Shown here in pieces: positions 3,001 through 9,000 of a stretch of DNA of 64,000 nt. Source of the DNA: a virus (Duplodnaviria; Heunggongvirae; Uroviricota; Caudoviricetes); IMG/VR virus record IMGVR_UViG_2721755660_000001; one strand, 5' to 3'. The number at the start of each line of letters is the position of its first letter. Within the stretch, counting starts at the first letter, position 1. Made by a program: the position numbers.

Positions 3001-6000
3001 TCCCTGGCTCAACTTGACGCTTAGTACCATCGTGCCCTGCACCAAAAAGCATGATATCTTTCATCATATGTTCTCCTGAATACAGACTAACAAATATTAA
3101 ACTGGCAACGTGAAGTCCGTAAATACCGCTGTCAAACAAGAGAATAAGGATGAGCTAAAGCCCCCTCTGCTTATTCTTCAGTTCGATCTCTTCCTGGCAA
3201 CTGGAACAGGTCTGGCAGCCGGGAACTACAGCACGCCGCAGCTCAGGAATCGGTTCGTCGCATTCTTCACAACGTTCAGCTGATACGGCGTTGCGGTTGA
3301 TGCGGTGAGCGGAAAGTGCAGCGTTACGCTGTAGCTCTTCAATCTCTGCTGCTGTGTCGATGATGTCGGCCATGATCAATGCTCCCGGAACTGTCGGTTA
3401 ATACGGTTGAAGGTGAACGCCAGCAATAAAAAAGGCCGCCCGAGCGACCTGGTGATTAGAGCTTTCATGCCTCTGGCTCCGGAGGTGTGGGTGCCCAATG
3501 CGTAATGTTCATTTCCTCATCATCAAGGCTCTCAATCTGATAGCTCCATTCCCAGTCACCAGTTTCAGTCATACAGTCTGAAAGCCAAACTGAGCGCCAA
3601 CCAATGACCCAACCTTCACCGTTAGCGTCAAATAACAAACACTGCTGATTAGGAGCAGGCAGCCCATCATTTACGGAAACAACCTCTGATTTAATTGCAT
3701 CTTTCCACGCAACTGCCGCCAGCTCTCCGCCGAGAATGTTCATGCGGGAATGCACCGCGGGCTCTTTCCCGTCCTCAAAATCTACGACAAAAGTTACCTT
3801 GCTCATTGTTCTGCTCCGAAGCGGCGATTAAGCCGACCTGTGTATACGACGAACTCCAGGAGGCTAACTACCAGAGCTTCAATTTTCTTGTGATGCTTGT
3901 TGATGATGGGAGGCACAGTTTCGTTCCAGTTTGGCTTTGGCTTCTTGCGCATGGCCTGCTGGATTTCCTCGGTGCAGCGACGGCAGGCGGCGCGGATGGC
4001 GTTGTCTGTTTCTGGCGTCATGCGGCCTCCGTTTTCACAACATCAATGGCGCAGCCTGGCAGCAGTTCTACCGCGGCGGTAGCGCACTGATTTCCCCAGT
4101 GATGCCAGCCTGGCGCCGCGCTGCGGCTGAATAATTCAATGCGCGGCACATCGCCGTATAGTAGTTCCAGCCGGTGGCGCACTTCCCACGGCTTTTCGCT
4201 GTGCGCGCCGAGCGGGCTGTAGACAACCTGCTTAATCCCGGCGTGCTTTCGTTCCAGCCCGGCGCCTCGGGTAGCAATCAGCAGATCTTCGGTATTGGCC
4301 AGGGTGTGGTTGCCGCCATTCATGCGCGTCTCGGCGTTAAGCAAATCGAGGAAGTCGTAAAAGTCGGTGATTTCACCCTCGGCCAGCGCCTTGTTGATGC
4401 GCAATTCCGCGTTCTGATTCAGCTTCACCTAGGTAAAGCCCTTCATCGTACGAACTGTAAATCCCCAGGCTTCGGCCAGCTCTATCGCTTCCTGGTTATG
4501 CGTGCCGGTGTACCACATCGCCAGCACCGCGTTTTCGGCAGCCAGCTCCCAAACCGGCAGGCGCTTTATGTCGATGAGCTTCATGGTGGAGTAGTGGTCG
4601 GCAGCGGCGCCGTTGCTGATGGTGTTGCCGTAAGACCAGGGCGGATCGACATACAGAAGTGAGTATTTCGCTGTCATGCCGCCTCCTGCCTTTCCCGATA
4701 TTCCTCAGCGAGTCTCTGCGCCTTTAATGGATTGCAGACCACTTCACCCCATGGCATTAGCCAGCCGTTACCAATGAAGGGAAGGCACAGAGTGCCAACC
4801 CTGATGTCGTCGTGAGCGTGAGTCATAGGATGGACTCCATTTCGTCGATGTAGAGGCCCTGAGCAATCAGGCGGCGACGGCGTGCGGCACGCGCAATGCA
4901 CTCCTGCCGTCTACCTTCCTGCGATTGCTCTATAGCGCGCCGTGTGAACAGGCGCGATTTACCCTGTGGCGTTACGACCTTTGGCTTCGTGACGAGGTCG
5001 AATGTCCGGTCACAGATGCCGTCCTCGTTGAGCCATTTTTCCGACTCAACTATTTGCGCTATCTGTCCGGTGCCGCGGGTGATGCCGTTGGCTACCCTGT
5101 TAAACTCAATCAGCGTTACGCCAAACTTCTCAGCGATTTCGCTACCGGTTATCGGGCGGCCACGCGTCTGAATCATCCAGATAACGCGTTCACGGAGGCC
5201 GGAGAATTGCCCTGTTCGCCCGGGCCTGCGGTAGAAGGGTGTGCGTTTCATTTCCACTGCTCCCCGAACGTGAAGCCGATTTCCGCCAGCGCCTCGTCCA
5301 TCTTCTCGATGAACTCCGGCACCATTTCGTTGAAATCGGATATGTACTGCGGATCCCGCTCAACGACGACGTGGTGAATACCTTCGCGTTTCATGCGCGG
5401 GTCGTAGTTGGCAAAGAACCAGGCGTCTTTCCCGGTCACCCACATGCTGTACTGCACCTGGGCCATGTACGCAGACTTGATGGCTTCGAAACCGCCAAGG
5501 CGGAACTTCATGAAGTCGCGGGAGGTGAACGGGCATTTAAGCTCAAGGCCGAACCCGTTACTGCACAGGCCGTCAGGGGAGCACGCGGTGCGCATGCTCT
5601 CGTCACGGAACAAGATCGGAGACTCCGTAACTTTCACGTCCGTGGTGAACTCGAAGAGGGTGCGGGCGTCTTCCTCGTACTGCTTGCCCCAAGCGAGAGC
5701 CTTGGCGTTAACCTCTGGTGCGACGCCGGTGCATACCTCTGCGAGTAGAGTGTGGAAGTAGGACATTTTCATGTCTGTCCATTTGGTGCCAGATCGAGGC
5801 TTGGAAATGACGTTGTGAGCGTCAGAGGCAGTAATAACTCCGAGTCTCGCCCTTGCCCATGTCTCGCTGCCTTGCTCAATTTGTGCAATTGGCCCAAATA
5901 TTTGCTCAAATTTAATGAGCCACCTGTTATCCATACTTCCTCTCCTTACGGCAGTTGGCTCTTGGCGGGATGTTAATGCCTCTATTGTTGTAGCCATGAC

Positions 6001-9000
6001 ACCATTTGTGGATGGTTGCTGGTTTCACACCAAAATGATTCGCTGCGGCTCCGGCGCTTTCAAAACGCAACCCATCAACAAACCAGTAAAACGATGTACT
6101 TCTGTTTTCCGCCTGCTTGGTAAGCGTTGCCCATCTGCAATTGTCTTTTGAATACGGGCCTTCATTGTTCTTCCGATTTAGCTGATGCTTAGGCGTAGGA
6201 GGTGGCCCCATATCTTCAAGAAATAGCTCGAACGTCAGCCATCTTTCGCAGATACCGCGCTTACTGTATTTTTCGAAGTCTTTGTTGTTCGGGTTCGTGC
6301 AGCGGTTTTTCATTCCGCTCCAAATCCTGTAAACGAGGGTATTGCGCTGGCCGTGAGTGGTGTTTTTTCCTGTCATGCATCCGCAGCTGCTTATTGAGTT
6401 GTTTTTAAGCTGATTTGCGGCTCTATGGCAGGAATTACCGCACACACAAAGGCATAGATACATCCTTCTACCTCTCAGCATGTGCGAGTATTCTTTGACG
6501 GTTAAGTGCCCGTATTTTTCACCGGGCATAAGTGGATTGGCGTTCATGCTGCCGCCTTTTGCCTGAGGAACCCGAGAGCCTTAACACCATCCAGTTCTGT
6601 CAGGTCGGCTGGCTGCGAGATAGGGCGTTTGAAAATGCGTGAACAGAGAGGGAGAAGATCGGCATCCCACGTCTTATCCAAAGAGACAAGCAGGTCATTA
6701 ATCTCTTTCTGCGTGGTTTCGCTAAGCGGCGTTATATCGCGCTCAGGCTGACGCTCTGCTGTAAAGTTGATACCTTCTTCGCCCTCGGTATTAACGTGGT
6801 CGATGGCGGCATCCAGGCGCTCACGGCGAGGCCAGTATTTTGCTGCCTGCTTCACGACCGTCTTGAGGATCATCTGCTCTTCGTCTGTGACCCAAGGACA
6901 CTTTTTGCTGTTGTCAGATTTGTACTTCTTCCATGCTTCAGACCGGTCACGGATGGAGTAGATGGCATCGATGCGCATCGTATGGGTGAGGTAATCACCA
7001 TCGTCAGTTTTTACCGTTACATACGCGCCTACGATGTCCCCGCGCTGCTCTTCAGTATCGAAGTCGTTGTAGATGTGGATCGGCGGCTTATCGAGCCCCT
7101 CGCGGCGGAACTGATCGTTTCTGCGAACAATTGCTGACTGGCACCATTTGATGGCGCCAGATTGCTGCGCGATGTGCATCAGGCCCATGTAACTGATGTC
7201 AAGGCAAATAGCCCCTTTACGCGGAACCAGGTAAGCCAGCTTCTGTGCTGGGTTTAGCGAAATACCGATGGCCGCAACGTTGATGATCGCGTTCTGCGTG
7301 CTAGTCTGGTTCTGGAATGCAACTTTCGCGAGGTAGTCGTTGTTCTGAAATAGCTGGATGGCGAACTGACTTTCCTTCGCCCACACCATCCGCTCGTCAG
7401 TGGCCGCCTTAATGAAAAGCGGCTCCTGTTGTTTGACGAAATCAACAAGGGTTAAGCTCATAATCCCTCCTTAGAACGGGCAGCCGGTACGGTGTTCCCA
7501 GTCGTATTCCGCCTGGGCGTAAGCAACTGCCGAAATGAAATCGTTGTAGGCCTCGCCAGCTTTATCGCTGCGAAGTCCTTCGTATGGGCTGGAGTCAATC
7601 GGTATGGAGAAGTGGAAGAGGCCGGACGGCTCTTTTGGCATCATGTCGATGATTTTCTGTGCCCGGTCGTCGATCCACTTCTCTTTCTCGTCGTCGAGCT
7701 GCTGCTCAACCCAGCGCCGATCTTCGATTCGGTCGTAAGTGAGGTATGCGTTCATGGCTGAACTCCTGAAATTTGGATGTGCAGATCCCGCCCGCGTAAT
7801 GCCAGGCCGATCGGTTGAATAGGGTGGTTACTGCTGTGCGATGGATTTCGCCGGGAACTCGCCGTTGCGGAGGATGCTTTCTACCGGCCAGCACTCAGCT
7901 GACACTTTCTGCTCTGTAGCTGCCTGGCTGCATTCCTGCTGGCTGTCGTAAACGCCGAGAATGACATCCTGATAATCACCGTTTGTCATTGCTACGGTCA
8001 GGACGAGCGCGAATAAAGTTTCCATCAGTGAAGAGTCCTCCCGATGGCGACGGCGTAAAGACGCTTTGCTTCTTCCCACGCCGGAGCATTGCGATGGAGT
8101 ACCGCGAACGACGCTAGCCGTTGGGCCTCTCTGATCTGCTGCTGGTTTACCATGATTTCCTCTTGGCCTTATCGCGGCGAACGGAACGTTAAACAAGACT
8201 TCTGCGCTAATGGGCGGTGGATGGCCGCCGGCTGTCATAAATGGGCAGACTCGAAAATCTGCCTATGTATGGCCGATAAAAAACCCGCCGGAGCGGGTCT
8301 ATTTGATGCGTCTTACTAACTGCCCCTGGACATTCACCCCGTCACCCGGCTGCAGCCTCCATAACTCTGAAAGTTGCAGATCCGTCCATGCGCGAAAATC
8401 AATCAACTCACGCAAAGAAAATCCTTTCTGATGATTAACCTCAAATTCTGGCATCGCCTTACCCTCTGTCGTTACCCGCTGATGCGGGAGAAATGCTTTG
8501 TGGTGCAGCGCCGGGTGCTTATCTTCCGGTTGCCGTCGATGCAGCTGCAATTCACTGCACTACAAAACATTCCAGTTATTGCCGGGGTATTTATCCGCGC
8601 CCGGCGCGCGCTTTCCCGCTATTCCCCAACAGCAAGAAATCGCTTACTCTTTAATCTCCCCAACAGTAGAAAGGATATATTCATGCAAACCATGCGGACC
8701 GTGTGCCCTGACTGCGGAAGTGAGATGTTCAACCAGCCCGATGATTTTGACTTTGAGACAAATTTCACCGGCGTCAGTTGTGCTGACTGTGGTCGAGAAA
8801 TCACTAAGGACGATGTTGTCAATCAGGCCACGGACACGGTCAAAAAACAGATCGACGACATGCTCAGGAATTCCCTGAAAGGAACTGGCTGGAAGTTCAA
8901 GTAACTTTAAAAGCTCCCCGGCCTGGGTAAGCACCTCGCTGGCGTCTACGTTAAGCAGTAGTGGCGCCGTTTTTTTATCTGCCATACACACCCCTCTGTT

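Follow-up and report, generated by a model that had tools for sequence, protein, structure and literature searches.

Why does the recombination module of one prophage carry a gene that is missing from a homologous module in the same chromosome? The question is raised by a 64,000-nucleotide (nt) stretch of the IMG/VR record IMGVR_UViG_2721755660_000001 (Caudoviricetes), hereafter the window, in which prophage 1 has an open reading frame (ORF) of 206 amino acids (aa) and 11 Cys, here called ORF206 (5927-6547, minus strand), lodged between recT and exo. The original prediction, made from the sequence alone, described a Cys-rich ORF of this length between exo and recT in prophage 1 only, coupled it translationally to recT, and took it for a homing-endonuclease-type mobile gene of HNH/NUMOD kind. 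We put a probability of roughly 0.68 on ORF206 being a free-standing homing-endonuclease-type selfish gene that entered the gamL-recT-exo run of this phi80-like prophage as a 667-nt cassette. We favor this reading because empty and occupied alleles differ at sharp boundaries, the gene is rare, it lies in an island of high identity and low GC content, and it is strictly co-inherited with a particular exo 5' end, and also because it matches PHROG HNH families, keeps conserved PacI-like residues, matches gp59 of vibriophage ICP1, has an intron-borne homolog and belongs to a scattered, multi-copy family. It is not a chance ORF, since homologs were found at E-values from 6e-137 to 1e-18 and its family comprises 204,132 cluster representatives.

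The 2.8 kb from gamL to exo are 100% identical to E. coli strains GB089 and OkiPb01715, and the window is E. coli chromosome. Prophage 1 is phi80-like, and its early-left operon runs on the minus strand in the order gamL, recT, ORF206, exo and a phrog_1680 gene. The first gene of the gam-recT-ORF206-exo run, gamL (7471-7755, minus strand; named so in GB089), encodes a host nuclease inhibitor (PHROG 1050, E = 1.8e-46), recT (6544-7461, minus strand) a single-strand annealing protein of 305 aa (Pfam RecT, E = 1.3e-29), and exo (5248-5934, minus strand) a 228-aa member of the YqaJ/lambda-exonuclease family (Pfam YqaJ, E = 2.5e-31), whose start was set by the RefSeq annotation of an identical locus and by conservation, the longest ORF extending to 5997. 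Prophage 2 provides an empty-site junction in the same window (55484-57171, minus strand): its recT (56170-57171) and exo (55484-56173) overlap directly by the ATGA at 56170-56173, as had been predicted, with no gene between them, and its exo begins with a phi80-type 5' end, ATGACACCAGAAATTAT. Between prophages 1 and 2 the modules are homologous (52% aa identity for RecT, 79% for Exo). The gene order proposed for prophage 1 and the content of the intervening ORF were likewise borne out, and so was its coupling to recT, the ATG of ORF206 overlapping the TGA of recT as ATGA at 6544-6547.

Further empty alleles are found in phage phi80, Enterobacter phage CobraSix and E. coli M37H, where the module is 84-97% identical to that of the window, recT and exo share a direct ATGA overlap, and ORF206 is absent. 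With blastn, homology to these insert-less loci ends at 6544 and returns at 5876. The junction alignment thereby defines both edges of a mobile cassette (5877-6543, minus strand) of 667 nt that replaces 48 nt of the empty allele and consists of ORF206, minus the ATGA shared with recT, plus a new exo 5' end (5877-5934, minus strand) in which 19 codons stand instead of MTPEIILARTGIDVST. The 48 nt replaced are the first 16 exo codons, as counted in M37H. The predicted insertion between the two genes is thus confirmed, but it did not leave both genes intact: exo has lost its first 16 codons and gained 19 different ones. The cassette sits at the exo start codon position of empty alleles, and ORF206 takes over that ATG and the upstream AAGG. 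In return the cassette supplies exo with its own Shine-Dalgarno sequence, its ATG and the 19 new N-terminal codons: the ATG (5932-5934) falls 8 nt inside the 3' end of ORF206, and the Shine-Dalgarno AAGGAG (5942-5947, minus strand), as read from the sequence, lies within the last codons of ORF206, 7 nt upstream. Because the cassette reuses the ATGA coupling and brings the exo start signals, the operon is left translationally intact.

The cassette has a GC content of 46.6%, lower than the 52.7% of recT and the 56.8% of the remainder of exo. Among the empty alleles, prophage 2 included, the CATGACACCAGAAATTAT stretch is conserved, and beyond the cassette the window exo is 85-90% identical to empty alleles over its first ~280 nt and 96-97% identical over its last 350 nt. 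Scans for promoters, terminators and repeats around the cassette gave nothing above shuffled expectation except a short direct repeat at the right edge. It occurs at 5872-5882 and 5902-5912, 30 nt apart (TTGCTCAATTT and TTGCTCAAATT on the plus strand, TTGAGCAA on the gene strand), and one copy falls exactly at the right edge of the cassette, where the homology to empty alleles (…GAGCAAGG) restarts. This repeat may have arisen by chance or may be microhomology left from the joint as first formed.

To be a conserved member of the module, ORF206 would have to occur in most relatives, which is not what we found: besides its absence from phi80, CobraSix and M37H, it was present in 10 of 5426 complete E. 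coli genomes, every time at the recT/exo site, whereas 3530 genomes have a match to at least part of the 2.8-kb gamL-to-exo query. Exactly the 10 genomes with ORF206, and none of the others, contain the variant exo 5' end. A 251-nt empty-junction probe (megablast, E. coli) returned only 2 full-length matches, and this count cannot be used as a tally of empty E. coli alleles because the recT 3' tail and the exo 5' end are too variable. All full-length ORFs among the copies compared are intact, and PEC148 alone is truncated, by an IS3-family element that removes the first 32 codons of the nuclease gene together with recT (2025-3525 of that locus). In M171-1 an IS3-family element cuts the 5' part of recT (3591-4804 of that locus). 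Copies in ET729, M171-1 and EF7-18-51 had been considered as decayed, which we rejected since their translations are intact and of full length, the annotated starts merely lying later.

In Klebsiella a 95%-identical protein is common, its cluster (P0001) having 383 member sequences and 466 contigs. Compared with the window at the nucleotide level, Klebsiella phage ST16-OXA48phi5.2 is 97% identical over ORF206 and 100% over the new exo 5' end, against 82-84% over the rest of exo, 79% over gamL and 63% over the recT 3' end. Its annealase gene differs from the window recT, only the last ~60 codons being common to both. These identities show that the cassette has passed between phages of Klebsiella and of E. 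coli on its own, separately from its flanks, and the island of identity together with the low GC content shows that this lateral movement of the cassette itself was recent. Beside the cassette, the last ~60 residues of RecT (6544-6749) are 48% identical to the tail of an otherwise unrelated 281-aa Klebsiella phage annealase (1659-2504 of its locus), which suggests that the C-terminal tail of RecT is swappable; it is possibly the segment that contacts the exonuclease.

What kind of protein does the cassette encode? The HNH/NUMOD label of the original prediction held in part. Searches of Pfam and NCBIfam with ORF206 yielded HTH_28 alone, below threshold, and no nuclease, NUMOD or AP2 domain; Pfam HNH, HNH_3 and related models matched neither ORF206 (E ≤ 1) nor any of 52 homologs (E ≤ 0.1). 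Three PHROG families labelled "HNH endonuclease" (374, 3377 and 2081) do match it, at E-values of 6e-49 to 6e-23, and what stands of the label is a PacI-like, His-less beta-beta-alpha-metal core with a C-terminal helix-turn-helix (HTH), related to the IPA-HNH genes of ICP1. An AlphaFold model built from a 52-sequence alignment, with a mean predicted local distance difference test score of 91.4, has three modules: an N-terminal barrel, a helical plus beta-beta-alpha core, and a C-terminal HTH. The first is a small beta-barrel with a CxC...CGC zinc knuckle (6374-6520, minus strand; residues ~10-58; Cys34, 36, 55 and 57), presumed to be a DNA-binding module. The central domain (6098-6370, minus strand; residues 60-150) is a PacI-like beta-beta-alpha-metal (His-Me finger) domain without the catalytic His, and in the model it has the beta-hairpin followed by a helix of that fold. 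The C-terminal HTH region (5939-6091, minus strand; residues ~153-203) has modelled helices at 165-172 and 176-184 and includes the sub-threshold HTH_28 match (164-191, E = 8e-4). At the same position, homologs match HTH_psq, I-TevI_DNA-bd, NUMOD1 or AP2, with NUMOD1 and I-TevI_DNA-bd in 1 of 52 homologs each and AP2, weakly, in 1 of 52; ORF206 itself has neither AP2 nor NUMOD. The conserved C83, C100 and C137 could, perhaps with H65, form a second site beside the putative zinc site of C34, C36, C55 and C57.

PacI is a His-Me finger enzyme without a catalytic histidine, in which an omega-loop tyrosine takes that role and Arg93 and His42 contribute (PMC5714182, PMC4081073, PMC13139853), while a single Asp and a single Asn coordinate the catalytic metal (PMC4081073). 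Across 120 homologs of ORF206, Arg125 at the end of the first strand, Tyr132 in the loop 7 residues on, and Asn136 are all invariant (120/120); Asn148 is found in 118, His65 in 108, and Asp or Glu at position 124 in 119. The Arg-to-Tyr spacing of 7 (R125/Y132) equals that of PacI (Arg93/Tyr100). We infer from these motifs that the core of ORF206 is a PacI-type, His-less beta-beta-alpha-metal nuclease. Homology to classical HNH proteins is not demonstrable by sequence, because the family profile, aligned by hhalign to two canonical HNH_3 proteins (one from a Klebsiella prophage, the other ICP1 gp80), gave no significant match; with one of them, this non-significant alignment pairs SIDRIDN with EIDHICNN. 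A PDB sequence search gave only spurious E6 zinc-finger matches for ORF206 and no chain at E ≤ 10 for the 52-homolog profile, and Foldseek of the ORF206 model against the PDB returned nothing below E = 0.27.

The missing histidine leads to one alternative, that ORF206 is a nuclease-dead DNA-binding protein, domesticated from a His-Me finger in the manner of the SMAD MH1 domain and acting as a regulator of transcription or recombination. His-Me fingers that bind DNA and lack catalysis are documented (PMC5714182), ORF206 has both an HTH and a zinc module, Arg stands at the general-base position across the family, and the window copy carries D124N. Yet PacI is active with exactly the same His-less Arg/Tyr arrangement, the putative catalytic residues are invariant in 120 diverse homologs, which is unexpected for a dead site, and the family includes intron-borne and multi-copy members. 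We regard a dead nuclease as highly improbable for these reasons.

The substitution in the window copy deserves separate mention. Codon 124 (6176-6178, minus strand) is AAT (Asn), a putative metal ligand that is mutated here; it precedes Arg125 and occupies the slot of the Asp preceding the catalytic His in canonical HNH enzymes. Among the 120 homologs this position is Asp in 104 and Glu in 15, with Asn only in the window's own sequence, and all seven other copies compared, from E. coli and Klebsiella, carry Asp. If residue 124 is a metal ligand as in PacI and I-HmuI-type enzymes, the window copy may be a decaying enzyme, weakened or inactive. Such inactivity would be nothing unusual in the life cycle of a homing gene that has become fixed. 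It could also account in part for the unoccupied state of the target-like junction in prophage 2, for which repression of the operon in the lysogen and the diverged recT tail of prophage 2 are alternative explanations.

How far does the family extend beyond this site? By tblastn it occurs in 887 records of phages whose hosts are unrelated and include Staphylococcus, Pseudomonas, Vibrio, Bacillus and Mycobacterium, often at several places in a genome and at up to 4. An exhaustive hidden Markov model search recovered 204,132 cluster representatives (50% identity) at E ≤ 1e-3 and 94,081 at E ≤ 1e-30, and the family core has no Pfam model. Many members contain the complete module 2-5 times in tandem, and in P0136 and P0257 the N-terminal zinc-knuckle unit is repeated 11 times. 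A homolog in Staphylococcus phage Lacachita (32% identity), annotated as an AP2 domain-containing protein, shares the D-R...Y...NCRW...N core and is encoded within a group I intron (Rfam RF00028, 60.9 bits) that splits the endolysin gene, separating exon 1 (...KAWNPDK) from an exon with the CHAP Q-C motif (...NDQCFD...). Other distant members lie beside a DNA polymerase gene, upstream of a serine recombinase gene or beside NinB. Presence and absence at the site, the sharp boundaries, the transfer island, the GC content and these scattered and intron-borne relatives together support the homing-endonuclease part of the original prediction.

Closer relatives behave differently from this scatter. 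In the contigs inspected, homologs at 95, 67, 61, 47 and 43% identity all lie immediately 5' of a YqaJ exonuclease gene, and those at ≤41% identity sit away from exo. Homolog and exo overlap by 8-11 nt in most contigs (for the 61% homolog by 8 nt, once the conserved exo start is used). The annealase upstream is a RecT, of two kinds, or an ERF, and an identical 200-aa homolog follows RecT in one contig and ERF in a second. Exo alleles that carry the homing endonuclease gene (HEG) retain the W..(K/A)FE.IFGPI N-terminus even where the nuclease is only 61-67% identical. This exo-linked clade fits an endonuclease lineage that targets the exo 5' end and carries its own immune version of it, and equally fits a functional partnership with Exo. 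We infer that the clade is specialized on YqaJ exonuclease genes and so marks a boundary at which annealase and exonuclease modules shuffle. In one Klebsiella prophage with the recT/exo cassette, a canonical HNH_3 gene (5266-5724 of that locus) was observed ~1 kb downstream between the MT-A70 and cytosine methylase genes; it is a putative second homing gene in the same early-left operon.

The constancy of this arrangement is also what an accessory of the recombination module would produce. ORF206 would then be a working DNA-binding, possibly nicking protein that loads, directs or regulates the YqaJ exonuclease; it would be passed on with a matching exo N-terminus as a "two-gene exo" alternative, which ordinary mosaic recombination would exchange among lambdoid phages. 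The position immediately 5' of exo from 95 to 43% identity, usually with the 8-nt overlap and whatever the annealase, speaks for such a role, as do the strict linkage of a special exo N-terminus to ORF206, the intactness of all full-length copies examined, the absent catalytic His, and the D124N copy, nonetheless maintained in three strains. We keep an accessory as the main rival but consider it unlikely all the same: most phi80-like and related modules work without ORF206 (the phi80 Exo and RecT are annotated as functional, and the gene is confined to the 10 of 5426 E. coli genomes), distant members stand in the unrelated contexts just described, and composition and identity island are typical of a recent lateral insertion.

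A related proposal makes the exo-linked clade the break-making part of a "cut-resect-anneal" cassette, in which a PacI-type nuclease, a YqaJ exonuclease and an annealase would together drive targeted gene conversion between lambdoid phages. The Tyr/Arg center would make the double-strand ends on which the phage Red-like system acts. We think this quite unlikely; if true, it would explain the translational fusion of nuclease and exo down to 43% identity and the hotspot of annealase/exo shuffling, and it would give the ~200,000-cluster family of His-less His-Me fingers its first functional evidence.

For the homing reading, we propose the following mechanism. The N-terminal zinc-knuckle barrel and the C-terminal HTH would bind DNA at a target in the recT-stop/exo-start region of phages without the cassette, where empty alleles conserve the CATGACACCAGAAATTAT stretch. 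A PacI-type center would nick or cut there, with Arg125 in the slot of the missing His, Tyr132 (omega loop) and His65 assisting, and Asp124 and Asn148 holding the metal. In the cassette's own genome the target would be overwritten by the cassette, giving self-immunity. Gam, RecT and Exo from the same transcript would resect and anneal the break in a co-resident or co-infecting HEG-less phage, and repair from the HEG-bearing copy would duplicate the cassette along with variable lengths of exo and recT flank. Co-conversion of flanks is in line with the step in exo identity noted above (85-90%, then 96-97%, against empty alleles).

The same nuclease could instead serve competition. ORF206 would then be an exclusion nuclease (a moron) that cuts DNA of competing lambdoid phages or of the host to its own phage's advantage, without copying itself into the cut site, which its nuclease-like fold and DNA-binding modules, as modelled, and its expression from the early-left operon together with Gam would suit; in general, phage HNH enzymes are known to cause marker exclusion (PMC12724721). 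But precise replacement at an empty site, co-transfer of the exo 5' end and the identity island are products of homing with co-conversion, and homing and exclusion are not mutually exclusive. We hold exclusion without homing to be very unlikely.

Several points weigh against the preferred homing reading. The canonical catalytic His is absent, its general-base position being Arg125 in 120 of 120 homologs, and the equivalences with PacI residues are drawn from motif position and published residue numbers. The window copy is itself D124N, in a protein common to two or three cattle and beef isolates. A target-like HEG-less allele, that of prophage 2, is uninvaded in the same chromosome. In several comparisons about half of the changed codons are non-synonymous and all full-length copies are intact, giving no clear signal of strong constraint or of decay. 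The long-standing linkage to exo could equally be compatible with a functional partnership. In the literature we found no nuclease activity, cleavage site or homing event for any member of the ORF206 family, and the two enzymes reported to exclude phage did not include the single PacI-like lactococcal phage enzyme tested (PMC12724721).

ORF206 is, in itself, an ordinary kind of selfish phage gene; what is of interest is its location inside a recombination module, the exo-linked clade and the extent of a family for which Pfam has no model. The locus offers a clean natural case in which a selfish nuclease gene is housed in the exonuclease/annealase machinery that homing needs. Sequenced E. coli strains offer the empty site, the occupied site and an uninvaded second prophage, so that homing can be tested directly in temperate lambdoid phages. 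The locus further hints at how the well-known mosaic joint at which annealase and exonuclease genes meet may come about, and the PacI-type Arg/Tyr/His center offers a structural and motif rationale for an abundant family loosely labelled "HNH" or "helix-turn-helix". For annotation, "helix-turn-helix domain-containing" or "hypothetical protein" at this position should become "putative homing endonuclease".

Other features of the window were noted along the way. The gamL of prophage 1 (7471-8238 region) is ~72% identical at the nucleotide level to other phi80-like gamL genes, though the adjacent recT is 95-97% identical, and prophage 1 is without the ~970-nt gene that follows gamL in phi80 (agt/Mog in the phi80 record, "anti-toxin for Gam", with GamL "toxic without Mog"); in ET729 and AW1.7 a gene is present at the position after gamL. 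From the diverged gamL and the missing agt/Mog gene, prophage 1 has a GamL variant without the reported modifier. An MT-A70 family DNA methyltransferase gene (4018-4677, minus strand) is split by an internal stop into ORFs at 4429-4677 and 4018-4428; damL, at the same place in phi80, is also a pseudogene, by frameshift. Between tyrosine-integrase genes at 46524-47744 (minus strand) and 48053-49297 (plus strand) lies a tRNA-Arg(CCU) (47858-47932), and because the integrase genes flank it, the two prophages abut the same tRNA locus from both sides. A tailspike gene (40828-42852) with N-terminal TSP1 and GDSL lipase/esterase domains is followed by Acyl_transf_3 genes (43002-43871 and 44892-45998) and accompanied by a gene with a weak hyaluronate-lyase-N match; this 40828-45998 region is likely a surface-polysaccharide modification module beside the integrase.

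How does the locus compare with known systems? A literature search found no described HEG between recT and exo of lambdoid phages. The free-standing homing endonucleases of phage T4 (SegA-G, MobA-E) have their target in the neighboring gene of HEG-less relatives, co-convert flanks and disturb the host operon minimally. Like ORF206, they are encoded by genes inserted between conserved genes; they differ in belonging to GIY-YIG or canonical HNH families and in that T4 cleavage and homing have been demonstrated experimentally. PacI (PDB 3m7k/3ldy) is group 20 of the His-Me fingers of Jablonska et al. 2017. The Arg at the His position, the omega-loop Tyr and the upstream His recur in the ORF206 family, a match by pattern, whereas a 52-homolog profile detects no sequence similarity between the two. 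The two also differ in build: PacI, a type II restriction enzyme, is a homodimeric protein of 142 aa that has two Cys4 sites and lacks separate DNA-binding modules, while ORF206 has three modules and is in a mobile cassette. In lactococcal Skunavirus phages, PacI-like free-standing HNH genes recognized by profile comparison are presumptive homing endonucleases of sporadic occurrence (PMC12724721), here likened to ORF206 by description only, and they differ in lying in the morphogenesis module and in another host.

Among phage homing genes, Barth, Dunham & Seed 2023 (PMC10448857) named the gp59 group of vibriophage ICP1 (gp59, gp115/116 and gp209) IPA-HNH homing endonuclease genes, which are too divergent for the HNH_3 model and lie at boundaries of genetic exchange. 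We compared gp59 alone with the ORF206 family: hhalign gave a probability of 93.9% and E = 1.6e-7 over 114 columns, with the motifs W..M..RC, VCxxW and D-(R/K)...Y...CR...N. In the ICP1 proteins the C-terminal domain is AP2, whereas ORF206 has an HTH and, in addition, the N-terminal zinc-knuckle barrel; gp59 has Lys where the ORF206 family has the invariant Arg, and no equivalent of Asn136. The ICP1 gene lies beside the gene for DNA polymerase in a lytic myovirus, ORF206 within the Red-like module that a temperate lambdoid phage carries. For the IPA-HNH genes, the lactococcal PacI-like genes and ORF206 alike, homing is putative. What the IPA-HNH genes and ORF206 share is that they are free-standing, lie beside important phage genes, vary between isolates, and have the same divergent core, unseen by the Pfam HNH_3 model.

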